Below, piece by piece: positions 11,882 through 59,451 of a DNA stretch of 64,000 bases. The notes under the pieces were generated by a model. The model saw only the letters and a list, made by a program, of their open reading frames with translations. It had not been told where the DNA came from and made no database searches. The stretch is taken from the NCBI GenBank assembly GCA_015492245.1, contig WGFM01000012.1, positions 126,206-190,205 of the forward strand, written 5' to 3'. Positions within the stretch are counted from its first letter, which is position 1; the number at the start of each line of letters is the position of its first letter. This stretch comes from Deltaproteobacteria bacterium. GTDB lineage: Bacteria; Desulfobacterota; GWC2-55-46; DRQE01. The translations under genes were made by a program, and so were the position numbers.

Positions 11882-11923
11882 TAATCCGACCATTGCTTTA
11901 TTACTGACAGGGAGGCAGAATCT

Positions 11924-12142
11924 GTGTGTCTTGGTATACCAGCGCTTGTGATAGGGCTTGAGGGGGAAGAGGCCCTCGTTGATGTTGCAGGCGCAAGAAG
12001 AAAGGTCTCAACCGCCCTTGTAGAGGGCATAGAAGAGGGAGACTATGTGATAGTCCATGCAGGCTTTATCATACAGAAGATAGACGCAGACAGGGCAGCT
12101 GAAACGATAAGGATGATAAGAGAGCTCGGCAGAAGACCATGA
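11924..12142 (+). CDS. hypC: hydrogenase assembly chaperone HypC/HupF
   Basis: GTG start giving 'MCLGIPA' (essential Cys2). It is 72 aa and lies between hypF and hypD. Confidence 0.9.
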   Translation: MCLGIPALVIGLEGEEALVDVAGARRKVSTALVEGIEEGDYVIVHAGFIIQKIDADRAAETIRMIRELGRRP

Positions 12143-13233: not shown

Positions 13234-13236
13234 CCC

Positions 13237-14232
13237 ATGAGCCAGAGGATAACCCTTGCCCATGGTGCAGGGGGCACAAGGACAGAGGAACTCGTAAAAG
13301 GGGTCTTCCTCGAGGCCTTTGGCAACCCCATACTGGAGGAACTCTCGGATCAGGCAACGGTAGAGATGGAGGGAAAACGTGTTTCCCTTACCACAGACTC
13401 CTATGTGGTCTCGCCACTTTTTTTCCGGGGTGGTGATATAGGAAAGTTGTCTGTGTACGGCACAGTCAACGACCTCTCTGTTGGTGGGGCAACCCCTGTT
13501 TACATGAGCGCATCATTCATAATAGAGGAGGGCACGGAGCTCTCACTCCTTAAGCGTATTGCAGAGAGCATGAGGGATGCCCTCCGTGAGTGTAACACAA
13601 GGATAGTTACAGCTGACACAAAGGTGGTTGAGCGGGGGAAGGCAGACACCCTCTTTATAAACACCACGGGGGTGGGCCTGGTGGATGACCATGTAGAGCT
13701 GTCTGCCACTAACATAGAGGAGGGCGATGTGGTCATCCTTTCAGGCACCGTTGCAGAGCACGGTGCGGTAATACTTGCAGAAAGGGCAGATATAGACATA
13801 CCCTTCAGGAGCGATTGTGCACCACTCAACGGGCTTACAAGTGTCATGCTCCGTGCAGGGGGTGTCAAGCTCATGCGTGATGTTACAAGGGGTGGGCTTG
13901 CAACCATACTCAATGAGTTTGTGGATGCCTCTGGAAAGGGTATAATCATAGAGGAGGGGCTTGTGCCCATAAGAGAAGATGTGAGGGGGGTATGCGAGAT
14001 ACTCGGGATGGACCCACTCTACCTTGCCTGCGAAGGACGCCTTGTTGCCATAGTAAGCCCTGAAGCTGCGGACAGGGTGCTCCATGCCATGCACTGCCAC
14101 CCCATGGGCAGGGGCGCAGCCGTGGTGGGTAGAATCGTGGCACAGGGAAGAGCCGTGATATTGAGGACAACCATGGGGGTTGAAAGGGTGGTGGGAAAGC
14201 TTTCAGGAGAGAATCTGCCCAGGATATGTTAA
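13237..14232 (+). CDS. hypE: hydrogenase expression/formation protein HypE
   Basis: PurM-like fold, 'ITLAHGAGG', and the C-terminal 'PRIC' thiocarboxamide-carrying Cys motif. Confidence 0.93.
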   Translation: MSQRITLAHGAGGTRTEELVKGVFLEAFGNPILEELSDQATVEMEGKRVSLTTDSYVVSPLFFRGGDIGKLSVYGTVNDLSVGGATPVYMSASFIIEEGTELSLLKRIAESMRDALRECNTRIVTADTKVVERGKADTLFINTTGVGLVDDHVELSATNIEEGDVVILSGTVAEHGAVILAERADIDIPFRSDCAPLNGLTSVMLRAGGVKLMRDVTRGGLATILNEFVDASGKGIIIEEGLVPIREDVRGVCEILGMDPLYLACEGRLVAIVSPEAADRVLHAMHCHPMGRGAAVVGRIVAQGRAVILRTTMGVERVVGKLSGENLPRIC

Positions 14233-20693: not shown

Positions 20694-21215
20694 CTATTCC
20701 ATAATGAGGGAGTCCTTTCTCTTATCGAACCTTACGAGCACTATCCCCTGTGGCGGAAAGTTTACCATCTTCTTAAGCAAATAGGGCGGGCTGTTCTTAC
20801 CATCCTTAAGAGTTATCTTCACATTGTGCACACCCTTTTTGAGCAGAAACCTTTCGTATATGTATGAGGCACCGTCTTTTTTCAGTCCTACAGGCTGGTA
20901 TGTCTTCTCAAGCAGAATCTTTCCATCCACCACAAGGCGCAGTTCCACGGGGTATCGTTCTCTTGAGCAGCCTGTCTTCTCAAGGATCCCTATGTCCATC
21001 CTTACACCCTGTGTCTGTCTGTTTTCCCTGCGATACCGCTCGGCCTCTCTGAGGAGAAACCCTGCTTCATCGCACTCTTCGAGCCTTTTGCCCGAGTGCT
21101 TGAAGGCTATCTTGAGCATACTGTCAGAGGGTGCATAAAAGTGAAACTCTGCGGCAGAGAGCATGTATATGAGCACAAAGGGTATGGCAGATACAATGAA
21201 GGCTGCTATACGCAT
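20694..21215 (-). CDS. hypothetical membrane-anchored protein, last gene of the oxidase cluster
   Basis: N-terminal TM helix. The start overlaps the stop of the cytochrome b fusion gene by 10 nt. No motif was recognised. Confidence 0.5.
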   Translation of the reverse strand: MRIAAFIVSAIPFVLIYMLSAAEFHFYAPSDSMLKIAFKHSGKRLEECDEAGFLLREAERYRRENRQTQGVRMDIGILEKTGCSRERYPVELRLVVDGKILLEKTYQPVGLKKDGASYIYERFLLKKGVHNVKITLKDGKNSPPYLLKKMVNFPPQGIVLVRFDKRKDSLIME

Positions 21216-22735
21216 GGGGTGTTTTTGCCTCCGTCTCTGAGTTCTTCGGCAAAGTCTTCTATCTGCTGGCGGAACTCTCTCCGTGCTGTTTGTGGGAGAA
21301 AGAGCATCTTTATACGGTGGTCTCTGCCCACAGATGTCTTGAAAGAGGGGTGTCTCAGGCCACTGAATCTCAGTTTCAGGAGTTCGTCACCAGTTCTGTA
21401 GTGGCAGTCATTGGGAGCACATGCCGCTATGACCACCCCATCCACCCCTGCATCGAGGGCGATCTCTGCCATGGAGGGCTGCACCATACCACCACAGGGC
21501 ACTGTGAGCACCCTTGCCGTGAGGCCATCGAGATTGGCAGATGCATCCACACCCCAGCTGCAGGCAAACACCAGAAGAGTTGGCCCCTCTTTCGTGCCTG
21601 CCAGCTCCCTGGAGATGGCAAGTATCTGCTCCTTGAACTCCCTTTCTGTTAAGCCATCCATACTGATGGCATCGAACTCACAGGCTCCCACGCATATGCC
21701 ACATCCGGCACACCTTTCGGGAGAGACCAGGGCCTCGAGATTGAAGGGCTTTCCATCGCTCCTCCGTTGCATGTAGATGGCCTCATAGGGACAGTCGAAC
21801 ACACACTGCTCACAGCCTGTGCAGTTCTTCAGTATGACAGAGGCGGTGAGACCCTTTCTTGTCGGAAAAAGCCATGGAACGAGTGCAATCCCCACGGTTG
21901 CCACTATTATTATGAACCACATGGTGGGCACAGATAGGTGCTTGAGTGGTGCATACAGAAACATGAAGAACCAGTCCACATCCACAGTGGCAGGCAGGCT
22001 CTTAAGGTCTGCAGGGGGTTCAAGGCCTGCAGGAAACAGGATGGAGTAAAGGAGAAGTAACCCCAGGGTTGCAAGCCCTACCCTGAAAGGCGGGTTTATC
22101 CTTGCAGATGCAATCCTGCTGACATGCACCCACAGGAGTATGAAAAGGAAGACCGTGAGGGCAAAGTGCATTATGAAGAGTATGTAGAAGAATATGGCAT
22201 CCAGACTCCCGGCACCTGAAAAGTTTATGGAAAGAGGTTGTCCAAAGATGGGTATTCGCTCGAGCATCTCTGCAGAGAACAGGGCCACAAGCTGGGCCTT
22301 CCTGTCCCACACGAGCCAGTAGCCGAATATGCCACATATCCATACCATCCACAATATGAAGACCCCGCTTATCCATGCGAGTCTGCGCCAGCCACCATGG
22401 CGAGAGGTTATAAATGTCTTTGCAAGGTGAAGTAGCATCACTGTGACCAGAAGGTCAGAGCCGTAGCGGTGGAGGCTTCGCATGATACCCCCGAGCCACC
22501 ACTGCTCCTCTGTGAGATACCTTACAGACTCATAGGCGCCCTCTGGGTTTATCTTGTAGAATATGAACAGGTATATGCCTGTAAACAATGCCACCCATAT
22601 GAGAAACACACCGATGGAGTGGAGATGATACAGCGGATTGTTGCGGTATATCCTGTTGAGCAGGCCCTCAAGATGGAGCCACATCAGGTGGAACACCCCG
22701 AGGTGTTTATGTTCTGTCTCTACCCTGTCTTCCAT
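21206..22735 (-). CDS. fusion protein: di-heme cytochrome b domain + 2x[4Fe-4S] ferredoxin + MvhD/FlpD-like domain
   Basis: Two H-x13-H pairs in TM helices ('RSLHRYGSDLLVTVMLLH', 'MHFALTVFLFILLWVH'). Two ferredoxin motifs follow ('CTGCEQCVFDCP', 'CAGCGICVGACE'). The C-terminal part is MvhD-like ('LLVFACSWG', 'VPCGGMV', 'GVDGVVIAACAPNDCHY'). Confidence 0.8.
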   Translation of the reverse strand: MEDRVETEHKHLGVFHLMWLHLEGLLNRIYRNNPLYHLHSIGVFLIWVALFTGIYLFIFYKINPEGAYESVRYLTEEQWWLGGIMRSLHRYGSDLLVTVMLLHLAKTFITSRHGGWRRLAWISGVFILWMVWICGIFGYWLVWDRKAQLVALFSAEMLERIPIFGQPLSINFSGAGSLDAIFFYILFIMHFALTVFLFILLWVHVSRIASARINPPFRVGLATLGLLLLYSILFPAGLEPPADLKSLPATVDVDWFFMFLYAPLKHLSVPTMWFIIIVATVGIALVPWLFPTRKGLTASVILKNCTGCEQCVFDCPYEAIYMQRRSDGKPFNLEALVSPERCAGCGICVGACEFDAISMDGLTEREFKEQILAISRELAGTKEGPTLLVFACSWGVDASANLDGLTARVLTVPCGGMVQPSMAEIALDAGVDGVVIAACAPNDCHYRTGDELLKLRFSGLRHPSFKTSVGRDHRIKMLFLPQTARREFRQQIEDFAEELRDGGKNTPCV

Positions 22736-22738
22736 TGG

Positions 22739-23560
22739 CTACTTTTTCTGCACAGAGAATATCTTCGAGAAAAGTGTGCCCAGGGGTCTCCTGAACAATA
22801 CTATGAGTATTGCAGTTATCAGTATGATCTGCAACACAAAGCCCATGACCACCGGCCAGTTCAGAACAAAGGTGCCACTTACAGGGTCATACACCGTGCA
22901 GAGCTGTTTGAGCCTGTCGAGAAAAGTGGGCTCTGTCTCCATGGGTATGTTGCCTGTAAGGAGTTCCACGAGGGGGGTCCTTATGTCCTCGGGCTTGAGG
23001 TTGAATCCGTATACCTGTTTGTATATGGTTCCGTCTTCATCCACCACGCTCACCATGGTGAGATGGGTGAACCCATGGGTATCACGCTCTTTGTAGAAGA
23101 AACCGAACTCACGGGTGAGCCGTTCCATGGTCTGCCGGTCTGCGGTGGCAAACCTTATAAGCCCGGTGGAGTCAAGATGACGCTGGCTGTATGCCTTGAG
23201 TGCTGCAGGGGTATCACGCTCTGTATCAAACCCCAGGATGAGCACATTGAACCTGTCGCCCATCTCTTTTTTTACCTCTTTTACCGCCTCCATGAGTGTG
23301 GTGGTTATGAGCGGACATACATCGGTACAGTGGGTGTATACGAAGCTTACAAGAAGGGGTTTTCCCTGCCCAAAGTAGTCATGCAGATGGAACCCTACGC
23401 CATCCTGGTCTACAAGTTCGTAGTCGTGCAGTTTAACACCCTCTGCCCATTCTGCCTGGGTAACGGCCTTTCTGGCCACCTCTACACTTATGATCTCGGC
23501 ATGGGCGGTGTGCAGGGAGAAGAGGAGTATAAAGATATAGATAATATGGTTCACCATCAT
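22739..23560 (-). CDS. SCO1/SenC family copper chaperone
   Basis: Signal/anchor peptide, thioredoxin-fold 'LVSFVYTHCTDVCP' (CxxxC) and a downstream conserved His ('FTHLT'). Confidence 0.85.
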   Translation of the reverse strand: MMVNHIIYIFILLFSLHTAHAEIISVEVARKAVTQAEWAEGVKLHDYELVDQDGVGFHLHDYFGQGKPLLVSFVYTHCTDVCPLITTTLMEAVKEVKKEMGDRFNVLILGFDTERDTPAALKAYSQRHLDSTGLIRFATADRQTMERLTREFGFFYKERDTHGFTHLTMVSVVDEDGTIYKQVYGFNLKPEDIRTPLVELLTGNIPMETEPTFLDRLKQLCTVYDPVSGTFVLNWPVVMGFVLQIILITAILIVLFRRPLGTLFSKIFSVQKK

Positions 23561-23649: not shown

Positions 23650-23739
23650 TTACTTCCATGGAAGGATTACCATGACAAGTATGATGACAGTTGTTATAAC
23701 GCCTATCCATAATGGCCAGTTGAATCTTTGTTGTTCCAC
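23650..23739 (-). CDS. possible 29-aa one-helix peptide (not in ORF track)
   Basis: A GTG start lies 7 nt after 'GGAGGAGG'. The product is 'VEQQRFNWPLWIGVITTVIILVMVILPWK'. It is supported only by RBS spacing and hydrophobicity. Confidence 0.15.
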   Translation of the reverse strand: MEQQRFNWPLWIGVITTVIILVMVILPWK

Positions 23740-23756
23740 CTTTATTACCTCCTCCA

Positions 23757-23903
23757 TTATTCTACCCACCATACTTCTACGAGCCACTTGAAGTGGAGGA
23801 ACCAGAGCACCATAAAGACCACCAGGAATATGAGAGAAAGTGCGAGAGTGCCTGGCGCCTCTATCTTGTTGCGGTGTTCCTCGTCATCGTATTTGTCTGC
23901 CAT
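23757..23903 (-). CDS. small one-helix protein following oxidase subunit I (paralog 1), not in ORF track
   Basis: My hand translation is 'MADKYDDEEHRNKIEAPGTLALSLIFLVVFMVLWFLHFKWLVEVWWVE'. It has the same architecture and 'MAD + acidic N-terminus + TM' pattern as ORF 25991..26173. Confidence 0.45.
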   Translation of the reverse strand: MADKYDDEEHRNKIEAPGTLALSLIFLVVFMVLWFLHFKWLVEVWWVE

Positions 23904-23927
23904 GTTTCTCTTCCTCCTGTTTATGGT

Positions 23928-25433
23928 TTATGGTGCCACCCTTCTGCCAAATAGCGCAGAACCTATGATTACCACAACATATATTACACCAGCAAAAACG
24001 GCAAGAAGTGTTCCCAGTCCCATTATGCTCAGGAACATATCCACCGATGGGTCGAAGGTGAAGGAGAATGGAGCACCAGAGAATGTTATGTCCCAGTGCC
24101 TTCTGGGCACACCAAGGGCACCTGCGGCCATCATACCTATGGATACCATCGATACCCCTATGAAGTAGAGGTAGGGTTGCACAGATGCAAGCCTTGGCAT
24201 TATAAGCTCTCTTTTGAAGATATAGGGCATCAGCAGATAGGAGAATGCCATGAAGGCAAGTGTGGTGCCCACCACCACCGTGCCGTGGAAGTGTCCTGTT
24301 ATGAAGAAGGTGTTGTGCCTTATTATGTTGAACTGCTCTGTTCCTGCTATGACACCTGTGGTGCCACCAAGGAAGCCGAACCCTATTATGGAAAGAAATG
24401 TGCCAGAGAATGCCGGGTTGCCCCATGGTGCCTTCTTTAGCCACTCGAAGAGCCCGTTGGTGTAGCCCTTTTCCCTGAGTGCCACCTCCATTGAGGCAGG
24501 TATCGCGAAGGCGTGCACCATACTTGCAAACACCGCAAGGTGCATCACATAGCTTGTGTTTATTATCTTGTGCCAGTTGCTGAATATGGGGTCAACCAGC
24601 AGGTGATGCTCACTTGCCACATTTATGAAGAAGATGTAGAGCACGAAGGCCGTTCTTGAGAGCTTTTCGTTCACAGGCTTACCACCGAGAACGAAGGCAC
24701 TCACCATGTACCATGCAGCCACCATGGCACACACATTTATCTGCTGACTGGGATGACCGAGCCCCCAGAATATGAGCCTGTATGTGCCAGGGTCCAGGTA
24801 TTTTATAAGCCCTATGGACCACAGAAGGGTCGGTATCATTATTACCGCACCATGGGCAAGGGTAACCACAGCTATGATCGAGGCAGCGGCCATGCCGAAG
24901 GAGCCAAGGGGAAGTGAGTGCTTGTATGCCCCATCCCTTTTTGCCTGTATTATGTTTGCAAAGAAGTGGCCAAAGGCTGTGAGCGCACCCACTGCAAATA
25001 TTATCACACCCGTGTAGTACACACCGCTGGCCTTGAGAGGCACATAGGATGTGAAGAGCACATCGGCCTTACCTGCAAATGTGGTTATGTTTACGAAGAT
25101 GGCCCCTATCAACATCAACGAGTAGGCGATCCAGCCGGCAGACGGGATGACGGTTCTTGTGTTGAGAAGAACAGCCGAGGTGAAGTGCACAAGGGCGACC
25201 TCGAAGAAGATTATCCACACCAGCAGGGCATCAAACCCGTGTAGAGTAAGGTATCGGTAATAATATGTTGGATCAAGGTAGTGAACACTCGGCCAGCGTG
25301 TAATACCTATGAGGAGACCCATGAGACCTCCGAGGGTCAGGAACAGCACAGCGGTTATCACATTCCACTTTATAAGGTCCTCTGCTGGCTTGTGTATCTT
25401 AAGCCCTGTGAAGGAGCAAGTTCTGAATTCCAT
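23928..25433 (-). CDS. heme-copper oxidase superfamily subunit I, B-family-like, lacking the cross-link Tyr (paralog 1)
   Basis: Twelve or more TM helices. Conserved His: 'LTLHG' (low-spin heme), 'GLGHPSQQ' (CuB), 'SEHHLL' (CuB x2) and 'TGHFHG' (both hemes). The His spacing matches ba3-type enzymes. Confidence 0.85.
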   Translation of the reverse strand: MEFRTCSFTGLKIHKPAEDLIKWNVITAVLFLTLGGLMGLLIGITRWPSVHYLDPTYYYRYLTLHGFDALLVWIIFFEVALVHFTSAVLLNTRTVIPSAGWIAYSLMLIGAIFVNITTFAGKADVLFTSYVPLKASGVYYTGVIIFAVGALTAFGHFFANIIQAKRDGAYKHSLPLGSFGMAAASIIAVVTLAHGAVIMIPTLLWSIGLIKYLDPGTYRLIFWGLGHPSQQINVCAMVAAWYMVSAFVLGGKPVNEKLSRTAFVLYIFFINVASEHHLLVDPIFSNWHKIINTSYVMHLAVFASMVHAFAIPASMEVALREKGYTNGLFEWLKKAPWGNPAFSGTFLSIIGFGFLGGTTGVIAGTEQFNIIRHNTFFITGHFHGTVVVGTTLAFMAFSYLLMPYIFKRELIMPRLASVQPYLYFIGVSMVSIGMMAAGALGVPRRHWDITFSGAPFSFTFDPSVDMFLSIMGLGTLLAVFAGVIYVVVIIGSALFGRRVAP

Positions 25434-25450
25434 TTCAACACCTCCCTACA

Positions 25451-25978
25451 TTACTTCACATATAATTTGCCCACCATCATGTGATGGCCGAGTCCACAGT
25501 ACTCATTGCATACGATGTGATATTCTCCGCTTGTGGTTGGAGTAAGCGTTAAAACATAGTCATAATCCGGGAGGACCATGAAGTTCATGTTTATAGGCAG
25601 TATAGACATACCATGCACTATATCGAGTGAGTATACATGAATCCTGTAGGTCTTTCCCTTCTCCAGTTGCAGTATGGGATACCATTGCCACATGCTTGCC
25701 TGCAGGAACACATCCGAGCCAGGCTCTGGATGCACAACCGGTATGCCCTCCTCTTCACCTACCTTGTATTTCTCCACCATTGCATCCACAAGGGCTGTGA
25801 ACTGTTCTGGATTCCTGACCCTGTATGTCTCAAAGGGTGGATTCTGTTTGCCTATGAAGTGGTACACAGGCATGAATGTGAAGGTGGTGAGCATCCACAG
25901 GAGCGCCACAGCTACCCAGAATTTTTCATCCCATGTGTAGGGTTTCCACCAGATCCTTTCGGGTTCTTTTATCGCCAT
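25451..25978 (-). CDS. oxidase subunit II with CuA centre (paralog 1)
   Basis: One TM helix plus a cupredoxin domain, with 'DIVHGMS' and 'CNEYCGLGHHMM' (C-x3-C-x3-H-x2-M). Confidence 0.85.
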   Translation of the reverse strand: MAIKEPERIWWKPYTWDEKFWVAVALLWMLTTFTFMPVYHFIGKQNPPFETYRVRNPEQFTALVDAMVEKYKVGEEEGIPVVHPEPGSDVFLQASMWQWYPILQLEKGKTYRIHVYSLDIVHGMSILPINMNFMVLPDYDYVLTLTPTTSGEYHIVCNEYCGLGHHMMVGKLYVK

Positions 25979-25990
25979 CTTATCACCTCC

Positions 25991-26173
25991 TTAAGGACTG
26001 TATGAGGGAAGGTCAGGTATCTGCACTATCTCCATAAGCCCCCATACTGTATATACCAGGGTCGGCACTGCGACACCGAAGAAGAAAAGGAGCATTATAT
26101 TGTCATAAAACAACTGCCATGCAGGGATTGGCTCTTCTTCCTGTTCTTCTATTTTTCTTTCTTCGTCTGCCAT
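25991..26173 (-). CDS. small one-helix protein following oxidase subunit I (paralog 2)
   Basis: 'MADEERKIEEQEEE' acidic N-terminus followed by a TM helix. It sits between the two oxidase modules. Confidence 0.5.
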   Translation of the reverse strand: MADEERKIEEQEEEPIPAWQLFYDNIMLLFFFGVAVPTLVYTVWGLMEIVQIPDLPSYSP

Positions 26174-26212
26174 GGCTAAAACCCTCCTTCAGTTTGTGGT
26201 TTGTAATCCTCT

Positions 26213-27655
26213 TTACCAGCCTCTTAAAGGTTTTACCCTCTGCAATCTCGTGAGATACCTTGCTATCACCATGGTTACACCGAAGACCACTATCCATGCG
26301 AAGTATACCGCTATGGTGCTGTAGACCTCGGTTCCGGGCATCTGGACAGCATACCTGCGGGGTGTGCCGAATATCCCTGAGTACATGAACATGGCTGTAA
26401 CCCCGTAGGCACCGATTAACCATGTCCACAGGCCAACCCTGTCCTCGAAGGTGTCCGTGCATCCGCCGAGCTCTTCGGTAAGATGGTAGAGTGCGCCTAC
26501 AAATACGAATGATGCACCTGCAAGCAGATATGTGTGGAAGTGGCCGGGAACGAACATGGTGTTGTGGAACTGCTGGTTAAAGCCAGCATCCATGACTGCT
26601 GCAAAACCACCTATTGCCCATCCCATTAGCCCCAGGAAGAAGTAAAGGGGTGCCACACTCCACTTCATGCCGGACCTGTATACCAGTATCAATGAGCCTA
26701 TTATGGTAACCACCGTTGCGGGAAATGCCGCCATGTATGAGCCGAAGACACCTATTACCTGGAAGGCAAGTGGCTGCACAAAGTCCTGTAACAGATGGTG
26801 CAGATAGGCAAGGGTAACCGCTATGAATGCGGTGTTCCAGGATATGGCCACTATCTTGTTGGACTTCCATGGCCTTCCGGCATACCTTGGAAGAAGCTCA
26901 TAGACGATGGCTGCGCACATGTACATGACCATGTTCATGAGTATGTGGCCGAAGTAGTAGATGAGGTTCTTTATAAAGAGATAGTCTATGTAGTAGGATG
27001 GATTAGCCCAGTAGATGAGCTGCTGAACCACTGTAATGCTACCAGAAAAGAGCGCCATTATGCCACACAGGGCCGTTATCGTGGATATTATGACCACAGG
27101 AGGAGGCGCTGTGTCAGGTGTGTCGTTGCCCCATATGAGATTCCATCCCATAGAGCTTGCAAAACCGTATTTTCTCGAACAGGAGACCACGACATCACAC
27201 CATGCGATGAACATGGCTATTATGACGCACATGATAACCAGAAGGTAGAGGGCACCCGCCCACTCATCCCATGCTCCTGCCGATTTGAATGGCAGGGGGT
27301 AGAGATATGTCCAGCCAGAACCATAATAACCCATGAGCGTGCAGACAAGCAGTGAGACAACCGCTGCACCTATTATGCCGAACATTATCAACATGAGGTT
27401 CATGCTGAGCCGCACATGCTTGCTCAGCGCGTACCACATCAAGGCCGTTACACCTGTCATAAGAGAGCCCGCCACACCCACCGAATGAAGCGTAACGAAC
27501 TCGTAGAGAACATCCGGCCTCAGCTCTATGAAGCCACCCTGACTCGTTCTGGCTATTACTCCAAAGAAAAGTGTTGCACCATAAAGAACAATCGTGATTG
27601 CCCCTATGCCCAGAGCAATGCCAGCGGTTCTTCTCTGATAAAAAGAGTCAGTCAT
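26213..27655 (-). CDS. heme-copper oxidase superfamily subunit I, divergent, lacking the cross-link Tyr (paralog 2)
   Basis: Conserved His: 'VTLHS', 'YFGHILMN', 'AYLHHLL' and 'PGHFHT'. The spacing from the helix VI His to the HH pair is the same 49 residues as in paralog 1. Confidence 0.85.
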   Translation of the reverse strand: MTDSFYQRRTAGIALGIGAITIVLYGATLFFGVIARTSQGGFIELRPDVLYEFVTLHSVGVAGSLMTGVTALMWYALSKHVRLSMNLMLIMFGIIGAAVVSLLVCTLMGYYGSGWTYLYPLPFKSAGAWDEWAGALYLLVIMCVIIAMFIAWCDVVVSCSRKYGFASSMGWNLIWGNDTPDTAPPPVVIISTITALCGIMALFSGSITVVQQLIYWANPSYYIDYLFIKNLIYYFGHILMNMVMYMCAAIVYELLPRYAGRPWKSNKIVAISWNTAFIAVTLAYLHHLLQDFVQPLAFQVIGVFGSYMAAFPATVVTIIGSLILVYRSGMKWSVAPLYFFLGLMGWAIGGFAAVMDAGFNQQFHNTMFVPGHFHTYLLAGASFVFVGALYHLTEELGGCTDTFEDRVGLWTWLIGAYGVTAMFMYSGIFGTPRRYAVQMPGTEVYSTIAVYFAWIVVFGVTMVIARYLTRLQRVKPLRGW

Positions 27656-27667
27656 CGTCCACCTCCT

Positions 27668-28195
27668 CTATTTTACCTCGAATTCTGTCATCATTATGTG
27701 ATGAGCCAGTCCACAGTATTCAAGACACCATACCTCATACTTACCAGGCTCTGTGAAGTTCACATAGAGACGGTTCACATAATCTGGCATGGCCTGTGTC
27801 TGGGCTATAAGCCAGCCATCCTTGTAGATACCGAAACCATGGTTCACATCGTTTGCCATAACATCGAACCTGACCCAGCCCCTTGGAACTTCTGTCTCCG
27901 ACATGTCGAACATGAACTGACTCGACATAACCTTCACAACGAAGGGCTTGCCAGTTACCCTTGACTCCACTATCTGCGGATAGGGGAAGGAGTAGATACC
28001 CACACCAAACAGTAATATACTCACTATCAGGAGCCCCCAGAAATACTCCCTTCTCAGACGATAGCCCCTCTCGGTTACACTCTTATAGTCCTGCTGTGGC
28101 TGAGTCCTTGAACCGACCCACCAGAAGATAGCCGCAATGACCACGGTTGACACAAGTATGGATACCCCTACAAGTATTTGTATTGTGTGGGACAT
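27668..28195 (-). CDS. oxidase subunit II with CuA centre (paralog 2)
   Basis: Two N-terminal TM helices plus a cupredoxin domain, with 'DVNHGFG' and 'CLEYCGLAHHIMM'. Confidence 0.85.
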   Translation of the reverse strand: MSHTIQILVGVSILVSTVVIAAIFWWVGSRTQPQQDYKSVTERGYRLRREYFWGLLIVSILLFGVGIYSFPYPQIVESRVTGKPFVVKVMSSQFMFDMSETEVPRGWVRFDVMANDVNHGFGIYKDGWLIAQTQAMPDYVNRLYVNFTEPGKYEVWCLEYCGLAHHIMMTEFEVK

Positions 28196-28393
28196 GGTTT
28201 CACCTCCTTACTGAACTTGAAAGATGTTAACACCATCATATGGATTTCGATTAATGCAGGATACATAGTATAGAAAGGAAGATGTATAGTAAGACCGGCT
28301 ATACACTTGACAAGCCCCCCCTTTGATTTGGAACCATCGGTAAAGATTAAAGCAAGTTCAAACCAAAATACTTTTGACTATCTATCACTAAAA

Positions 28394-28407
28394 TTGATAT
28401 ATGTCAA
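28394..28407. promoter_or_regulatory. CRP/FNR-family-like box TTGATATATGTCAA upstream of the oxidase cluster
   Basis: The sequence matches TTGAT-N4-(A/G)TCAA. It lies about 200 nt upstream of the first oxidase gene start (28195, minus strand). Confidence 0.35.
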
Positions 28408-28436
28408 GAAAAATATTGTATACAATATACAGAACT

Positions 28437-30771: not shown

Positions 30772-31119
30772 ATGTTAAGGAGACTTTTTTCAGCTATCTT
30801 CATGGTGCTGTTGTTTGCGGCCACTGTCCAGGCATACGAGGGTTTCATAAAGCCTGAGCTCGTCTGCATGGTAAACGACAGGATAATGGGTGCTCCCCAG
30901 ATACCCGTTGAGGTAGAGGGCAAGACCTACTATGGCTGTTGTGCCGGGTGTGTTGGGGCACTGAAGAACGACGAGTCGGTACGGTATGGGGTAGACCCCA
31001 TCTCTGGCAACAGGGTGGACAAGGCAGAGGCCTACATAGTGGCAGACCCACTGGGTATAGCCATCTACTTCGAAAATCCTGATAATGCAAGGCGCTACCT
31101 TGAGAAGTTGAAAAAGTAG
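30772..31119 (+). CDS. secreted TRASH/YHS-like metal-binding protein
   Basis: Signal peptide '[21 protein letters not shown]' and a Cys pattern C-x22-CC-x2-C ('CMVND...YYGCCAGC'). It lies directly upstream of copA. Confidence 0.55.
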
Positions 31120-31148
31120 AGAAAAGCAGTAAAGGAGGTGGTCCCCAT

Positions 31149-33806
31149 ATGGCCAGGGATCCAGTGTGCGGCATGGATGTGGCACCAGGGAGTGCCGCTG
31201 CCACGGTAGAATACAAAGGCAAGACATATTACTTCTGTAATGTGAACTGCAAGAACAGTTTCGAAAAGGAGCCAGAGCGCTACCTCGAAGAAGAGGAGGA
31301 AGAAGAGGGGGAGGAATCCCCCTCTTCCGGTGCCCAGGAGATTGGTGGCAGAAGCTCTGTAACCCTCGATATAAGGGGGATGAGCTGTGCCTCCTGTGCC
31401 GCGAAGATAGAGAAGGCGCTTCGCTCCATAGATGGGGTCATAAAGGCAGAGGTGAACCTTGCCGCAGAGAGGGCAACAGTATGGTTTGATGCCTCCAAGA
31501 CCTCACCCTTAGAGTTCATAAGGGCCATAGAGGGGCTCAACTACTCGGTGCCATCCCAGAAGGTGGTGCTTCCTGTAGAGGGGTTGAGCTGTGCCTCCTG
31601 TGTGGAGAAGATAGAGGGTGCACTCAAGAAGAAAGAGGGGGTTCTTTCTGTCTCGCTGAATTTTGCGACAGAGAAGGCAACGGTTACATACCTGCCCGCT
31701 GTTGTATCCCTTGAGGAGATAATCGAGACCATAAGAGGGCTTGGCTACCATGTGGCAGAGACCGGGGGGCTTGAGGCCGAAGACATTGTTGCAAGACAGG
31801 AGCGGGAGAAGAAGGAGGCCCTCAGAAGGCTCTGGATAAAGTTTGTAACAGGGGTTGTGCTCACCACAGGGGTGTTCGCCTTTACATATCCGGAGTATTC
31901 AGGGTTAGATGCCCTTCTGGGACTGTCGAAGAAGCAATACCTGTGGATACAGTTGATACTTGCCTCGCCTGTGCAGTTCTGGTGTGGTTACGATTTTCAC
32001 AGGGGTATGCTCATAGCATTGAGGCACAGGAGCGCGGATATGAACACCCTCATATCTGTGGGCACCTTTGCGGCCTATCTCTACAGCCTTACCATTACCC
32101 TGTTTCCAGACTATTTCCTGTCCCGTGGCTTTCCAATAGATGCCTATTACGATACTGCAGCAGCCATAATAACACTCATCGTGCTTGGCAGGTTTCTCGA
32201 GGCGAGGGCAAGGGCACAGACCTCTGCGGCCATCAAGAAGCTTGCACAGATGAAGCCCAAGAAGGCACGCATCATAAGGGATGGCAAAGAGGTGGAGATA
32301 CCCGTTGAGGATGTAATGGTTGGTGATATTGTGGTGGTTCGCCCTGGTGAGAAGATACCTGTCGATGGTGTGGTGGAGGAGGGGGAGTCCGCGGTGGACG
32401 AATCGATGATAAGTGGCGAGAGCATGCCTGTGGACAAGAAGCCGGGCGATGAGGTCATAGGGGCCACCATGAACACCACGGGCTCTTTCAGGTTCAGGGC
32501 GAGCAAGGTCGGCAAAGACACGGTACTTGCCCAGATAATAAAGATGGTGGAAGATGCACAGACCCAGAAGCCACCCATCGCACGGCTTGCAGATGTCATA
32601 TCCGGCTACTTTGTGCCAGTGGTCATAGTGATAGCCGTTATAACATTTATAATATGGTACTGGCTTGGCCCAGAGCCGAAACTTACAAGGGCGATGCTCA
32701 GTTTCGTATCTGTGCTCATAATAGCGTGCCCCTGTGCACTGGGGCTTGCAACCCCAACATCCATAATGGTGGGCACAGGCAAGGGGGCTGAAAATGGAAT
32801 ACTCATAAGGGGTGGCGAGTCGCTCGAGACGGCACATAAGCTCACCACCATAGTGTTCGACAAAACAGGCACCCTTACAGAGGGCAAACCCTCGGTTACA
32901 GATGTGGTGCCAGATGAGGGGTTCACCGAAGAGGAACTCCTTCGTCTTGCAGGCACGGTTGAGAAGTTCTCAGAGCACCCAATAGCAAAGGCGGTGCTGA
33001 AAGAGATAGAAAGAAGAGGGATAACCGTGCCAGAGGCAACAGGGTTTACGGCCCTGCCAGGAAGGGGCGGAAAGGTAGGGCTCGATGATAAGGAGGTGAT
33101 CGTCGGTGGCATAAGGCTTATCGAGGAGATGGGGCTCGATGTATCACACCTCAAGGATGAGATTGCACGGGTCTCCGATGAGGGAAAGACCCCTGTGTAT
33201 GTTATAACAGCTGGAAGGCTTGCAGGCCTCATCGCCATCGCAGATACCATAAAGGAGCATACACAGAAGACCGTGGAACTTCTCCACAGGATGAAGCTCG
33301 AGGTTCTGATGATAACAGGAGACACCCACAGAACCGCACAGGCCATAGCCAGAAGGCTCGGTATAGACAGGGTCCTTGCAGAGGTGCTCCCGGAGGACAA
33401 GGCAGAGGAGATAAAGAGGCTTCAAGCTGAGGGAAAGATAGTTGCCATGGTGGGCGACGGCATAAACGATGCCCCGGCCCTTGCACAGGCAGATGTGGGT
33501 ATTGCCATAGGCACGGGAACAGATGTGGCCATGGAGGCATCAGATATAACCCTTATAGGGGGGGACTTGAGGGGTATTGTTACTGCAATAGCACTCAGTA
33601 GAGCCACCATAAGGAACATAAAGCAGAATCTTTTCTGGGCGTTCTTCTACAACACCTCACTCATCCCCGTGGCAGCGGGCGTACTCTATCCGTTCTTCGG
33701 CATAACCCTCAACCCCATATTCGCAGCCTCTGCCATGGCACTATCCTCTGTGAGTGTCGTTACAAACGCATTGAGGCTTAGATGGTTTCGTCCACCAACC
33801 ATATGA
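31149..33806 (+). CDS. copA: copper-translocating P1B-type ATPase
   Basis: N-terminal TRASH/YHS 'DPVCGMDV...YYFCNVNC' and two HMA domains ('GMSCASCA', 'GLSCASCV'). Also 'CPC' in TM6, 'DKTGTLT', 'GDGINDAP' and 'TGES..V.K' (actuator). Confidence 0.93.
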
Positions 33807-36399: not shown

Positions 36400-36476
36400 G
36401 GCGGTGTAGCTCAGGTGGTTAGAGCAGGGGTCTCATAAGCCCCGAGTCGGTGGTTCGAGTCCACCCACCGCCACCA
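36400..36476 (+). tRNA. tRNA with CAT anticodon (elongator Met, or Ile2 if lysidine-modified), CCA encoded
   Basis: Hand-folded cloverleaf: acceptor GGCGGTG/CACCGCC, D-arm GCTC..GAGC, anticodon stem GGGGT/GCCCC, loop CTCATAA, T-arm GGTGG TTCGAGT CCACC, then A-CCA. The G1-C72 pair argues against an initiator. Confidence 0.9.
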
Positions 36477-36516
36477 TACCTCGACTTTTGAACATCGACG
36501 CTACCCTATCTTGTGG

Positions 36517-37151
36517 CTATACAATGTGCCCACACAGTTCGGCGGACAGTCCCACGGCTTCGTGTTGAAAATTGAGTATAAATAGCTTCTTATCTATAAG
36601 TTCACAAATCGGTTGTAGGTTTTTATCTTTCTTTAAGACTTTCTTAAATCTGTCTCGAGAAACCCTGAAGACAGGGGCATTACCCCAAGCTGCAGCTACT
36701 GTTTGAGTAGAATTTTTAACTATCCAGGAAGGGTCTAAGATAGCATATTGGTAAGTTGGTTTGATGATGTATAGAATTTTGGTATCTTCTTTGGGTACCT
36801 TTTTTTCAGCCTTCTATTTTTAGGAGCAATTTTTGAAATTTTGAAATCATATGCACTCAATAGTTCTTTTGCGTATTGAAACTCTATGTACTTAGCCTCT
36901 CCGCTTGAGTATTTAACGATAAAGTCAGGATCCCTTGTTATCCCACCCTTTCTTAGAAACCATATAAACTTATCACCACCAGACCTTTCTACAATAGCGT
37001 TTTTATCCTCTTCATGAATCTTGTCTCTGAGCCAACGCAGGACCTCAAGCTCTACGATTGCTTTCTGTTTCATATCCTTGCGATATTCAAGATAGGTTCT
37101 TGATTTAATATCGCTTGATTGGGCATATGTTGTTTTTGTGTCCAGATTCAT
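36517..37151 (-). pseudogene. putative type II restriction endonuclease (PD-(D/E)xK-like), frameshifted in an A7 run
   Basis: The track ORF 36735..37151 contains 'DPDF...GEAKYIEFQYAK'. After the A7 run at 36800-36806, a second frame stays open for about 96 codons to TAG at 36517 ('KVPKEDTKILYIIKPTYQYAILDPSWIV...'). One extra A would join the two frames. Confidence 0.55.
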
Positions 37152-37156
37152 TGTTC

Positions 37157-38209
37157 TTAAACAAACAGTCTGGTCTGATAATTGTCTAAATTCTCAACTG
37201 CAAGCTCTGCTATATCAGGAACTATCTCGTAACCTACGCCATTTCTTTTAAGATCAGCAGCTGCTTCCAATGTTGTTCCACTTCCTAAAAATGGATCTAA
37301 GATTGTTTCTCCTACAAAAGAGAATGCTTTTATAATTCTATATGGTAATTCATAAGGGAAAGGTGCAACATGTGATCTGTTGTCTCCGCTATTCTGCGGT
37401 TTCATCGTCCAAACATCGGTATTCTTTATGCTCAGCCAAAAATCTTTGTCAAGTCTCGACTCTTCTTTTTGCCTTTTTGTTAAGTGTCCGTATTTGTTGA
37501 AACCTTTCTTGTCTGGTTTGTTAAACTCTAAGATAAACTCGTGCATGTTGTTTATCAAGATTCCTCCGGGGTATGGGTATGTCCCAAAGTGAGCTCTAAC
37601 TCCGTGCGTCTTATGCCATACAATATTTCTTTTAAAGATGAAACCGATTTCTTACATTACATCTATCGTTCTTCCAACTAAATTGAGTGATTTAAAACCA
37701 TTATTGTTGTCCCTTACTGGTAAATTCATGATATTTATAAAAGCCTTTCTTCCTGGTTGGAGAACTCTGAAGACCTCTTTCCACACCATGCTTATTTTTT
37801 CAAACCATTCATCGAGGTCATGGATACTGCCCAGGTCATTCTCCATGGGTCTTTTGGTGTACATCTTGGCATTGAAGTAGGGCGGAGAAGTAATCATCAA
37901 GTGAATAGAGTTGTCTTCCAAGTCTTCCATCTTCATCGCATTTTTTACATAGATTCTTTGTGTAGTGTTGTTTATTGTCAGTATGTTCTCAGTTGGCACA
38001 CTCTTCCTTTTGTTGTTTCTGCTGTGGTTAGAATGCTCTTTTTCGTATCTTTTCAGCTCTTTCAGGTCAAATCTTTTTTGCCCACTCGCGGCAAGAGTGC
38101 ACTTGAGCTTTTTGGCTTTCACTAAATCGTGCAAACTTTGCACAGTTATTCCTAAATATTTCGCTGCTTCTGTAGAAGATAGGTATTTTCGTTCTTTATA
38201 ATCGTTCAT
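37157..38209 (-). pseudogene. beta-class N4/N6 DNA methyltransferase with N-terminal HTH, interrupted by one in-frame TAA
   Basis: HTH 'LSSTEAAKYLGITVQSLHDLV', motif IV 'TSPPY', then TAA at 37652-37654. The same frame continues 'EIGFIFKRNIVWHK...HEFILEF...HVAPFP..LP...DPFLGSGTT' (motif I). Confidence 0.75.
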
Positions 38210-38499: not shown

Positions 38500-40437
38500 C
38501 TAATGTACCCTTCCTATCCGCAGTGCATTCAGTATGACTGCAAGGCTCAATCCCATGTCTCCCACGGCAACGGCGAGCCACAGCGTAACTATGCCAGGGA
38601 AGGCGAGGATCGCAAAGGAGCCCTTTATGGAGATGGAGGCAAGGATGTTCTGCTTTACAACGGCCATGGTCCTCTGGCTCAATCTTATAAGGTAGCTCAC
38701 CTTTGTGAGGTCATCTTCCATGAGCACCACATCTGCCGTATTTATGGCCACATCAGAACCTATCGCCCCCATGGCTATACCCACATGTGCCCTTGCAAGG
38801 GCAGGTGCATCGTTTACTCCATCGCCTACCATCACCACATGTTCCTCTCTTTCAAGAAGTTCCTCTATCGTGGTTACCTTGTCTTCTGGAAGTAGTTCCG
38901 CATAGTACTCATCGAGCGAGAGCCTTCGGGCTATGGCATGGGCAACCCGCTCGTTGTCTCCTGTGAGCATAACGGTCTTTATACCCTTCTTCTTGAGTCT
39001 GTTTATCACATCGAAGGCAGCAGGCCTTACTCTGTCCATGAGGGCTATTATGCCTATACACTCTCTGCTGTCGCCCACGAGCACCACGGTCTTGCCTTCC
39101 TCTTCCAGTTCCTCCAGCATCTTTTCTGGAAACGCTATCTTCTCTTCGTTGAAGAAACTGCGGTTTCCGACATAGAATGTGCCGCCTTCGAGTTCAGCGG
39201 TAAGCCCCTTGCCTGTTACAGAGCGGAAGTTGCTGACACTTACAGGCCTTATGCCCTCCTCTTTTGCCCTCGACACAATGGCATCTGCAAGCGGATGCTT
39301 GCTTCTTGCCTCAAGAGAGGCTGCTATCTCGAGCACCCTGTCTCTGGAATAGCCATCGAGGGCTATAACATCTGTAACCCCAGGGCTACCCTCTGTGAGT
39401 GTGCCTGTCTTGTCGAAGACCACCACCCTGGCCTTTCTCAGCTCCTCAAGATATGTCCCCCCCTTTATGAGAACCCCGCACCTTGCAGCAGATGTTATGC
39501 CAGATACCATGGAGACAGGTGTTGATATTGCCAGTGCACAGGGGCATGCCACAACGAGCAACACCAGCGCCCTGTAGAGCCATTCACTGAAGGGAAGTCC
39601 CCACAGAAGTGGCGGCAGACTCATAACGAGGAAGGCAAGCCCCACCACCACAGGGGTGTAGTAGCGTGCGAACCTGTCTATGAACGCCTCTGTGGGAGAC
39701 TTTTCCTTCTCGGCCTCCTCCACTATCTTTATTATCTTGGACAGCGTGGTCTCATCAGACCTTTTCGTTACCCTTACCTCGAGATAGCCCTCCTCGTTCA
39801 TGGTGCCTGCGAACACCTCGCTTCCTTCGACCTTGACCACCGGCATGCTCTCGCCTGTGATGGGCGCCTGGTTCACCGATGATGTGCCGTGGACCACGAT
39901 GCCATCAAGGGGTATCCTGTCGCCTGGTTTTACCACGACAATATCATCAGGGCTTACCTGGTGGACATGGACCACCACCTCTCTGCCGTCCTTTTTGAGT
40001 GTTGCTGTCTCAGGGGCAAGGCTCAGGAGTTCTGCTACAGACCTTCTTGCCCTCTCTGCTGCATAGTCCTCAAGGAGTTCTGCTATGTAGAAGAGAAATA
40101 TAACGGCTGCCCCCTCCTCGCCATGGCCTATCAGGAATGCACCTGCTGCTGCAATGGTCATAAGGAAGTTCATGTCCAGCCTTCTGCGCCATAGAGAAAG
40201 CATGCCCTTCCTCATGATGCCATGGCCTGCGATGAGCACTACGAGCAGAAACAGTGCCTGCGAAAGCCATATGTAGGGGGTGAAGAGCTCAAGGTACAGC
40301 CCTATGGCGAATACCACGCCAGAGGTGGCTACTATAACCATGCCCTTCTGCTTCCACCGTGGGTCCTTTAATGTAAGCCCCTCTTCTCCACAGGTGGTGC
40401 ATAGTTCACCTGAAATATGTTCATCCCTTTTTGCCAT
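38500..40437 (-). CDS. heavy-metal (Zn/Cd/Co-type) P1B ATPase
   Basis: 'CPC' ('VACPCALAISTP'), 'DKTGTLT', 'GDGVNDAP' and 'TGES.PV.K'. There is an N-terminal 'CTTCGEE' but no classical HMA domain. I prefer the start at 'MAKRDEH' (40437) over track 40506. Confidence 0.88.
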   Translation of the reverse strand: MAKRDEHISGELCTTCGEEGLTLKDPRWKQKGMVIVATSGVVFAIGLYLELFTPYIWLSQALFLLVVLIAGHGIMRKGMLSLWRRRLDMNFLMTIAAAGAFLIGHGEEGAAVIFLFYIAELLEDYAAERARRSVAELLSLAPETATLKKDGREVVVHVHQVSPDDIVVVKPGDRIPLDGIVVHGTSSVNQAPITGESMPVVKVEGSEVFAGTMNEEGYLEVRVTKRSDETTLSKIIKIVEEAEKEKSPTEAFIDRFARYYTPVVVGLAFLVMSLPPLLWGLPFSEWLYRALVLLVVACPCALAISTPVSMVSGITSAARCGVLIKGGTYLEELRKARVVVFDKTGTLTEGSPGVTDVIALDGYSRDRVLEIAASLEARSKHPLADAIVSRAKEEGIRPVSVSNFRSVTGKGLTAELEGGTFYVGNRSFFNEEKIAFPEKMLEELEEEGKTVVLVGDSRECIGIIALMDRVRPAAFDVINRLKKKGIKTVMLTGDNERVAHAIARRLSLDEYYAELLPEDKVTTIEELLEREEHVVMVGDGVNDAPALARAHVGIAMGAIGSDVAINTADVVLMEDDLTKVSYLIRLSQRTMAVVKQNILASISIKGSFAILAFPGIVTLWLAVAVGDMGLSLAVILNALRIGRVH

Positions 40438-40528
40438 CACGCGTCTTCGTAACCCTTGTTCATGTAATAACCTTTTAACATAATACCACAAAATAATAAA
40501 ATACAATTGATACTTTTAGCAAGTGCTT

Positions 40529-59400: not shown

Positions 59401-59451
59401 TGGGTTAACCTGAGTTAGTATTATTGCAGAACCCTTTTGCAAGGAGTGGCC

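Follow-up and report, generated by a model that had tools for sequence, protein, structure and literature searches.

The position that carries the cross-linked tyrosine in the O2 reductases of the heme–copper oxidase (HCO) superfamily is occupied by other residues in its nitric oxide (NO) reductases (NORs): glutamate in cNOR and qNOR, asparagine in sNOR, glutamine in eNOR, aspartate in gNOR and, again, asparagine in CuANOR (PMC8756737 Table A4, after Hemp & Gennis 2008). Further family traits have been described: nNOR combines cNOR-type residues with a His/Met-ligated low-spin heme, gNOR has an Asp in place of a His and a subunit II without CuA, some eNORs have a His/Lys-ligated low-spin heme, and a K channel like that of the ba3 oxidase, including its Ser309, is kept in eNOR and bNOR, sNOR being without that Ser (PMC11214002). 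The biochemical demonstration of NO reduction is limited to one eNOR, that of Rhodothermus marinus, which reduces NO and does not reduce O2 (PMC11214002). Here we describe a locus in a 64,000-nt stretch of DNA (the window) from Deltaproteobacteria bacterium (Desulfobacterota; GWC2-55-46; DRQE01; assembly GCA_015492245.1, contig WGFM01000012.1, positions 126,206–190,205), in which ten closely spaced minus-strand genes running from 28195 to 20694 are best read – with a probability of roughly 0.7 – as one operon encoding two distinct CuA-type NO reductases together with shared assembly and accessory proteins.

The upstream enzyme, which we assign to the sNOR family, comprises a NorS-like subunit II with a periplasmic cupredoxin domain (27668–28195, minus strand like all genes of the run; 175 residues, with Pfam COX2 and NCBIfam CoxB matches) and a NorY-like subunit I (26213–27655; 480 residues, COX1 E = 2.2e-37), here called paralog 2. 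The downstream enzyme, assigned to the eNOR family, has a subunit II with a CuA cupredoxin domain (25451–25978; 175 residues) and a subunit I with a core of 12 transmembrane (TM) helices (23928–25433; 501 residues, COX1 E = 9.7e-61), here called paralog 1. Both subunit II proteins contain the complete CuA motif C-x-E-x-C-G-x2-H-x2-M with an additional upstream His: CLEYCGLAHHIM plus His119 in the sNOR protein, and CNEYCGLGHHMM plus the upstream His in the eNOR protein. Hydropathy predicts two N-terminal TM helices in the former and one in the latter.

The first-pass annotation of this DNA had proposed that both subunit I proteins keep the six canonical His ligands of the superfamily but have lost the cross-link Tyr, and alignment to the Thermus ba3 oxidase, together with the family alignments described below, bears this out. 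All six are present (H65, H227, H276, H277, H381 and H383 in paralog 1; H57, H237, H286, H287, H372 and H374 in paralog 2), and the distance from the helix VI His to the pair of adjacent histidines (HH) is indeed 49 residues in both, equal to that from H233 to H282 in ba3. The ba3 tyrosine itself, Y237, aligns with Q231 of paralog 1 (in GHPSQQ) and with N241 of paralog 2 (in GHILMN), so that the residue numbers originally counted by hand prove exact. Nor is there a Tyr six residues before HH, where C-family enzymes have theirs: the residues are Ile270 in paralog 1 and Val280 in paralog 2. The Glu said to stand immediately before HH in paralog 1 ('SEHH') is E275.

These alignments bear directly on the most conservative view of the locus, namely that both proteins are ordinary B-type cytochrome c oxidases in which the missing Tyr is an alignment artefact or is replaced from elsewhere in the structure. 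Homologues do carry automatic names such as 'cbb3-type' or 'b(o/a)3-type cytochrome c oxidase subunit I', and among solved structures ba3 comes nearest to paralog 1; the register of the GH-x3-Y motif is nonetheless unambiguous, the His-to-HH spacing is 49 in all, and no conserved Tyr occupies the helix VII position. In a neighbour-joining (NJ) tree, moreover, the Tyr-containing ba3-type enzymes of Thermus and Haloarcula fall outside the clades of both window proteins with bootstrap values of 99–100, and the R. marinus eNOR does not accept O2 (PMC11214002). We therefore consider this explanation highly improbable, and membership of the B-family O2 reductases was rejected for both proteins, which have Gln231 and Asn241 where a Tyr is required.

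Paralog 1 has more than 7,900 database relatives at E ≤ 1e-10, mostly from metagenome-assembled genomes (MAGs) of Deltaproteobacteria/Thermodesulfobacteriota. Its family alignment consists of the best 120 relatives and three named plasmid references, counts being out of 124, and in it Q230, Q231, E78, Y242 (ba3 Y248), S304 (ba3 S309) and H307, the last in place of ba3 T312, are invariant (124/124). The invariant glutamate of the family is accordingly E78, located in helix II ('FFE'); Glu275 was considered for this role and rejected, as it is found in only 101 of the 124 and the enzymes of Thermus, Thermomicrobium and Defluviimonas lack it. The plasmid genes of Defluviimonas, Thermomicrobium roseum and Thermus thermophilus encode proteins 51%, 49% and 44–45% identical to paralog 1, compared with at most 35% for Tyr-containing ba3-type enzymes, and these three join paralog 1 in a Gln clade with a bootstrap of 100 (NJ). 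The Thermus homologue has a Lys at the position of a low-spin His (GHFK), which matches a published peculiarity of the family, the His/Lys ligation of 'some eNORs' (PMC11214002).

The partner subunit tells a similar story: it is 42–48% identical to subunit II of other Gln-type enzymes, and just before its TM helix lies Glu18, positioned like Glu15 of ba3 subunit II; of the eight proteins aligned, seven have Glu and one has Asp before this helix. By sequence, the best solved-structure match of paralog 1 is ba3 (1e-41), as it is for the AlphaFold model (TM-score 0.87). With Gln at His+4, a CuA subunit II and K-channel-like residues, paralog 1 has the features expected of an eNOR and is best assigned to that family, its link to the characterised R. 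marinus enzyme running through the named proxies. By analogy with that enzyme, NO reduction by the window eNOR is likely.

Two HCO homologues were noticed beside eNOR genes elsewhere (comparison loci are designated by L numbers). The loci L008 (14544–16055) and L009 contain an extra copy of eNOR subunit I, 503 residues long and 71% identical, with GHPSQQ and SEHH intact and no subunit II gene of its own. In L098 (GCA_040960375.1), a 482-residue COX1-like protein, 28% identical to paralog 1, is encoded directly after eNOR subunit I (10753–12201); it has neither the HH pair nor the GHFH motif and appears to be a degenerate or differently ligated HCO homologue.

Paralog 2 has only 13 close relatives (58–95% identity), after which there is a gap, all others being at most 43% identical. 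Asparagine occupies the Tyr position in each of 122 relatives (122/122), and a scan of species-representative genomes yielded 80 sNOR loci – carried by, among others, an uncultured Nitrosomonas, Thiobacillus, Aromatoleum, Castellaniella and Mariprofundaceae – with Asn in all 75 that could be parsed. At the positions of ba3 S309, T312 and T315, paralog 2 has Ala, Val and Ile; the first of these, Ala313, is matched by 84 Ala, 21 Val and 12 Ser across the family. A conserved sNOR Glu mentioned in PMC11214002 could not be identified in the paralog 2 family. The protein is 35% identical to the sNOR of the Ruegeria ('Silicibacter') pomeroyi megaplasmid, a literature-listed carrier, and 36% identical to a homologue from a Nitrosomonas MAG, and its subunit II is 43% identical to that of Ruegeria over 106 residues and 39% to that of Thermomicrobium over 176.

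In the NJ tree, paralog 2, the Ruegeria sNOR and the Nitrosomonas MAG homologue belong to an Asn clade with a bootstrap of 100. The 13-member subclade containing the window protein is likewise recovered at 100; it nests within sNOR diversity, because a group of the other Asn sequences that leaves it out was seen in 0 of 100 replicates. Paralog 2 represents a divergent branch of the norSY-type sNOR family, for which NO reduction is plausible. The norSY–senC–orf1 arrangement is absent here, since an SCO gene comes only after the eNOR genes and the window clade has no orf1 homologue; the missing order is a feature of gene context and says nothing about the properties of the enzyme. For comparison, the Ruegeria locus reads Rrf2 regulator, subunit II, subunit I, SCO, a hypothetical protein and a nitrite/formate transporter.

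Two tyrosines close in sequence to the His ligands of paralog 2, on which the first-pass annotation was silent, deserve mention. The first stands at His+8 and is Tyr245, which does not vary across the family. Y284 lies two residues before HH, a position at which 93 of the 122 relatives have Tyr and 27 have Phe, so that this second tyrosine is not essential in sNOR.

AlphaFold models of the two subunit I proteins (predicted local distance difference test scores of 80 and 85) confirm the HCO fold of both, and fold searches against the Protein Data Bank (PDB) show that neither has a close solved relative; no cNOR or qNOR is found among the 50 fold matches listed for either model. The sequence match of paralog 2 to ba3 is distant (E = 2e-9), and its model resembles A-type oxidases (TM-score ~0.8) better than it does ba3 (0.71). 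The subunit II of A-type oxidases has two TM helices, like the one predicted for the sNOR. An A-type-like fold, if the model is right, is hard to square with the literature, in which sNOR is placed beside the B family. The two window proteins share ~30% identity over only 80–100 residues (E = 1e-5), and a profile–profile identity of 20% rules out a recent duplication; we infer that they represent anciently diverged families.

The remaining families of the superfamily can be set aside one by one. C-family O2 reductases were rejected on the grounds of Ile270 and Val280 at the helix VII position, where neither family has a Tyr; cNOR, qNOR and nNOR because the window proteins have Gln and Asn rather than Glu, the fourth FeB ligand of those families, and His for both low-spin ligands; and gNOR because all three metal-binding His and both CuA sites are present. 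For paralog 2, bNOR/qCuANOR was likewise discarded, given Ala, Val and Ile at the K-channel positions and carriers that are MAGs of Deltaproteobacteria/Desulfobacterota. The proposal that these are NO-reductase-type enzymes, with eNOR and sNOR among the candidate families, is in this way supported by the diagnostic Gln and Asn and by two clades with bootstraps of 100.

It is very unlikely, in our estimation, that one or both enzymes instead perform a different chemistry, such as NO dismutation, N2O reduction or the turnover of some other small oxidant. NO dismutase and N2O reductase roles have been suggested for related HCO families that lack the Tyr (PMC11214002), the operon includes an unusual cytochrome b–iron–sulphur (FeS)–MvhD protein, and in L006 the corresponding genes have a NosD-like gene downstream of them. 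The proposed families are, however, related to qNOR and cNOR and not to the B-type lineage, paralog 1 has every family-invariant residue of eNOR, a family with measured NO reduction, and there is no positive evidence for another substrate.

Several points weigh against the conclusion that both enzymes are NO reductases. The tree is an NJ tree of 63 sequences rather than a curated superfamily phylogeny, the R. marinus eNOR, Bacillus azotoformans bNOR and Nitrosomonas europaea NorY sequences stood outside the comparison, and family membership rests on diagnostic residues and named proxies. Whether the non-heme metal is Fe or Cu cannot be told from sequence. No nirS, nirK, nosZ, nar or heme a/o synthase genes are found in the 64-kb window and, because nir, nos and nar are absent from it, the window lends no support to NO production by the organism. 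Neither ctaA nor ctaB occurs in the operon or elsewhere in the window, and in the eNOR described in the literature both heme sites are filled by a heme a derivative (As) that is O2-dependent (PMC11214002). As to the sNOR, we found no report of a purified and assayed member; its invariant Tyr245 lies one helical turn below Asn241, with Tyr or Phe at HH−2; and from Nitrosomonas transcriptomes it has been argued that the family serves in high-affinity O2 reduction (PMC6967387).

The last of these points lead to a competing explanation in which the eNOR reduces NO, and the sNOR-type enzyme serves chiefly in high-affinity O2 reduction or O2 scavenging, being co-expressed so that traces of O2 are removed or respiration becomes possible at an oxic–anoxic interface. 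In N. europaea, where the oxidase role was proposed, sNOR genes are induced 2.7- to 10.8-fold under O2 limitation, and sNOR is without the cNOR glutamates (PMC6967387); the nearby invariant Tyr245 and a predicted subunit I fold that matches A-type oxidases as well as or better than ba3 would fit such a role. On the other hand, a His–Tyr cross-link is found in every characterised heme–copper O2 reductase, and the sNOR position is invariably Asn; Tyr245, at His+8, should not be able to adopt the i/i+4 geometry of that cross-link; nitrite-transporter and nar genes adjoin the closest sNOR relatives; and bNOR, with the same active-site residues as sNOR, is reported to be an NO reductase (PMC11214002). 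We regard this division of labour as unlikely, though deserving of more serious attention than an altogether different chemistry, and continue to read the locus as encoding two NO reductases.

The boundaries of the two modules differ from those first drawn. The first-pass annotation had described two three-gene modules, each composed of subunit II, subunit I and a small one-helix protein; the two head-to-tail II/I pairs stand, but the small one-helix open reading frames (ORFs) number three, and all three belong to the downstream module. The first of them, a 60-residue protein (25991–26173) with its own GGAGG site, had been counted with the sNOR; that assignment was rejected because the gene accompanies eNOR in organisms without an adjacent sNOR. 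In Defluviimonas, Thermomicrobium and Thermus, where no sNOR adjoins, its homologues immediately precede the gene for eNOR subunit II, and it is the first gene of eNOR clusters – a placement which we take to resemble that of ba3 subunit IIa.

The second, a 48-residue protein (23757–23903), aligns with the C-terminal helix of the 561–576-residue subunit I proteins of Defluviimonas, Thermomicrobium and Thermus and, judged by this alignment, is the split-off C-terminal helix of eNOR subunit I; in L005, L006 and L008, too, it has a gene to itself. The third, a 35-residue one-helix ORF (23650–23757), is conserved in L011 (35 residues) and L006 (38 residues) with a common NWPxWI...LPW pattern; its start overlaps the preceding stop codon by 1 nt, which suggests translational coupling, and a 45-residue, GTG-started form of it agrees with the end coordinate given in the first-pass annotation. 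By homology, then, all three small proteins belong to the eNOR half of the operon. We infer that this half is ba3-like, with a one-helix protein and a one-TM subunit II, and that the sNOR half is complete with two genes.

Three larger genes follow. The first encodes an SCO1/SenC copper chaperone (22739–23560; 273 residues, Pfam SCO1-SenC E = 3.6e-19) with a C-terminal TM helix and the CxxxC motif HCTDVCP. It is 32% identical over its full length to the SCO protein of the Defluviimonas eNOR cluster and 27% identical, over 113 residues, to the SenC of the Ruegeria sNOR, and it is likely to load the CuA sites of both window enzymes. The second (21206–22735; 509 residues, identified by Pfam and NCBIfam domains) encodes a fusion of a cytochrome b, a 2x[4Fe-4S] ferredoxin and an MvhD/FlpD domain, 37% identical to the product of the Defluviimonas gene in the corresponding position; a cytochrome b–FeS gene also adjoins eNOR in L006, L008, L075, L097 and L098. 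The cytochrome b part has helices A–F and a PEWY-like 'VDWFF' loop, the fusion gene is co-conserved with eNOR and SCO in Alphaproteobacteria, Betaproteobacteria and Desulfobacterota, and its neighbourhood contains no gene for a Rieske or cytochrome c1 partner. We consider this protein a conserved accessory of eNOR clusters and a candidate redox partner.

The last gene of the operon (20694–21215) overlaps the preceding one by 10 nt and encodes a 173-residue protein that has a single TM helix, at its N terminus, and matches no family in Pfam or NCBIfam. It is 25% identical (E = 1e-15) to the product of a 172-residue Defluviimonas gene in the corresponding position and is present in L008 and L011. 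The complete set of SCO, cytochrome b–FeS–MvhD and 173-residue genes follows eNOR on the Defluviimonas plasmid and in L097 (a Desulfobacterota UBA5799 genome with no sNOR nearby), L075 (a Ramlibacter MAG), L006, L008 and L098. In Ferrigenium, the common operon consists of eNOR subunit II, eNOR subunit I, heme o synthase, sco1 and a scaffold protein, with cytochrome b–FeS genes beside it (bioRxiv 10.64898/2026.01.22.701106). The 173-residue protein may be the one named in Ferrigenium as 'eNOR scaffold protein of unknown function', and the downstream half of the window operon is a typical eNOR cluster minus the heme o synthase gene.

That these ten genes form a single operon is suggested by their tight gaps – in gene order 12, 39, 12, 17, 24, −1, 89, 3 and −10 nt – by the GGAGG-type ribosome-binding sites that precede each of the seven upstream genes except the 35-residue ORF, and by the conservation of the tandem across lineages of 58–95% identity. 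No terminator-like site stands out between the operon genes.

The side-by-side pairing of the two enzymes is as unusual as had been claimed. None of the other 79 sNOR loci in the species-representative genomes has the tandem (0/79), and an eNOR lies within 10 kb of only one of them, in a Ramlibacter MAG, on the opposite strand; subunit I, SCO, orf1 is the order usually met among the 79, most of which have SCO, orf1 or both immediately downstream. The tandem is confined to a small clade of Deltaproteobacteria MAGs from vents and the subsurface. In one branch of the window subclade, all checked members have the sNOR followed by the eNOR: L005 (GCA_016200645.1); L006, L007 and L015, which share the same sNOR (P0132), L015 being the L006 contig; L008, L009 (from GCA_011375175.1) and L010, again with one sNOR in common (P0125); and L011–L014, including GCA_015491445.1, which are 94–96% identical to the window and have the same flanking genes. 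The sister branch, 64–67% identical, is stand-alone, with subunit II, subunit I, an HPP-family protein and SCO in one locus, and subunit II, subunit I, a formate/nitrite transporter with hemerythrin, and SCO in another. The tandem may or may not have arisen once, the set of its carriers having a bootstrap of 25 (NJ). It would seem that a stand-alone sNOR pair came to lie before a typical eNOR cluster, its own senC being lost.

One could also suppose that only the eNOR part of the operon works and that the sNOR pair ahead of it is silent or in decay, a mere passenger, as it has neither the senC nor the orf1 that follow most other sNOR genes. This is, however, the least credible of the explanations considered: the sNOR frames are full length, their heme, metal and CuA ligands are intact, their ribosome-binding sites are strong, and the pair, with all family-invariant residues, is conserved in five lineages of 58–95% identity.

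The genes around related loci speak for the NO-reductase reading. The tandem of L005 and L006 comes straight after narGHJI and a gene for a membrane-anchored cytochrome c, all on one strand. Genes for nitrite/formate transporters are found with the sNORs of L008, L100, Ruegeria and Thermomicrobium, and the closest stand-alone sNORs have formate/nitrite or HPP-family transporters encoded beside them. The Thermus eNOR has an Rrf2 regulator, a cytochrome P460 and a multicopper oxidase encoded in its vicinity.

If both enzymes are indeed NO reductases, the following mechanism can be proposed. The periplasmic CuA domain of subunit II would take electrons from a soluble donor encoded outside the operon and pass them to the bis-His low-spin heme in subunit I and on to the binuclear site of high-spin heme and non-heme metal; judging from the predicted ligands, two such paths are complete in the operon. 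Without the cross-link Tyr, this site should be unable to provide the fourth electron for O2 reduction, and it would suit the reaction 2 NO + 2 e− + 2 H+ → N2O + H2O. The substrate protons of the eNOR probably come from the cytoplasmic side by way of a K-channel analogue, for which Glu18 of subunit II and Tyr242, Ser304 and His307 of subunit I are candidate residues, and such cytoplasmic uptake would make the reaction electrogenic. SCO, and probably also the divergently encoded Cu-ATPase described below, would metallate CuA. Possible reasons for having two enzymes are differences in NO affinity, O2 tolerance or regulation.

A bolder proposal – and, we think, a rather doubtful one – is that the whole gene set constitutes one integrated respiratory module instead of two redundant enzymes. 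In one version, a supercomplex would let the cytochrome b–FeS protein, which has no Rieske partner, supply electrons to one of the CuA enzymes or to both, which, if true, would mean energy-conserving NO respiration in vent Desulfobacterota; in another, the divergent sNOR subclade would have a different job beside a true NO reductase, for example O2 scavenging.

Expression of the operon probably starts in the upstream intergenic region (28196–28436). Here lies TTGACATATATCAA (28394–28407), an FNR-box-like sequence 212 nt upstream of the first ATG and a candidate for FNR/Dnr-type regulation. Only one relative, 96% identical, shares this sequence, which coincides in part with an ordinary −35 hexamer, TTGACA; TTGACA also occurs upstream of the operon in L006 and L008. 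Just past the pabC stop codon is a perfect 16-bp palindrome, ATATTGTATACAATAT (28413–28428). No known regulator could be tied to either element. Different palindromes, GTTTCA-N3-TGAAAC, are found upstream of stand-alone sNORs of the sister subclade, two in L099 (8736–9456) and one in L100 (2971–3319), and are absent upstream of the window operon; these repeats may be an operator for some regulator.

The immediate neighbours of the operon are pabB and pabC on its upstream side and a divergent gene for a Cu-type P1B ATPase, accompanied by one for a 115-residue Cys-rich protein. The ATPase, with one YHS and two HMA domains, is encoded on the plus strand at 30772–33806, preceded by the Cys-rich protein and divergent from both pabB–pabC and the NOR operon; it may be a source of copper for CuA. 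Some 5 kb further on, another P-type ATPase is encoded (38500–40506, minus strand). Between the two, a tRNA gene (36400–36473) is followed by a stretch of low G+C content (0.41, versus ~0.51 elsewhere), in which a DNA methylase is split into two ORFs (37157–37558 and 37652–38209) and an HTH_17 domain is encoded; 36400–38209 looks like the remnant of an integrated element. Elsewhere in the window (9596–14232, 57280–58569 and 59437–61329) are the maturation genes hypF, hypD and hypE, the gene for a NiFe(Se) hydrogenase large subunit, and selB, suggesting that the organism is probably a hydrogen-using maker of selenoproteins.

The assignment of the two enzymes matters for how such genomes are understood. 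Because both proteins and thousands of their relatives are labelled 'cbb3-type' or 'b(o/a)3-type cytochrome c oxidase', a vent deltaproteobacterium comes to look like an aerobe with two oxidases; read correctly, the genes probably give the organism two NO reductases, and it may be a source of N2O. The tandem also offers a side-by-side comparison of two NOR families under one promoter, well suited to questions of sNOR function and of energy conservation by CuA-type NORs.

Compared with known systems, the downstream enzyme resembles the eNOR family in its Gln, its CuA subunit II, its ba3-like fold, the K-channel-like set of Tyr242, Ser304 and Glu18, and the leading one-helix gene, and its cluster resembles those of other eNORs in having sco1 and a cytochrome b–FeS gene, as in Ferrigenium (bioRxiv 10.64898/2026.01.22.701106). 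It differs from other eNORs in a split subunit I (501 plus 48 residues, as opposed to one protein of 561–576 residues in Thermus, Thermomicrobium and Defluviimonas), in the Glu275 before HH that is absent from these three named-organism references, and in an operon that is without a heme o/heme a synthase gene and has an sNOR pair in front. The upstream enzyme shares with the sNORs of ammonia oxidisers and Ruegeria pomeroyi (norSY–senC–orf1) the Asn, the CuA subunit II, a non-Ser residue at the position of ba3 Ser309 and an SCO gene downstream; in contrast to other sNORs, it belongs to a small separate subclade (13 clusters at least 58% identical, all others at most 43%), has neither orf1 nor a senC of its own, and is followed by an eNOR cluster. 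With bNOR/qCuANOR of Bacillus azotoformans, paralog 2 has in common CuA and the Asn at the Tyr position, bNOR being reported as electrogenic; bNOR, compared here by its description, is however restricted to Bacillales and has a ba3-like K channel with a Ser309 equivalent (PMC11214002), where paralog 2 has Ala, Val and Ile.

Thermus ba3 is similar in its ligand spacing, in a one-TM CuA subunit II (as in the eNOR half) and in an upstream-encoded small one-helix subunit, but it has the Tyr237–His233 cross-link and reduces O2, and neither window protein has that Tyr. The likeness to cNOR, qNOR and the convergent nNOR lies in the proposed conversion of NO to N2O and in the missing Tyr cofactor. Differences are the Glu at the Tyr position and the lack of CuA in cNOR and qNOR, the cytochrome c subunit of cNOR, the fused quinol site of qNOR, and the His/Met low-spin heme of nNOR, none of these traits being found in the window proteins. 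Both families are known from the literature, as are the missing Tyr – a defining family trait – and genomes that combine several NOR families. The locus reveals no new enzyme family, and its enzymes are ordinary; only their pairing is unusual. What is new is that, in a small clade of Deltaproteobacteria, sNOR and eNOR genes stand head to tail in one conserved operon, together with a divergent branch of sNOR and a split eNOR subunit I.

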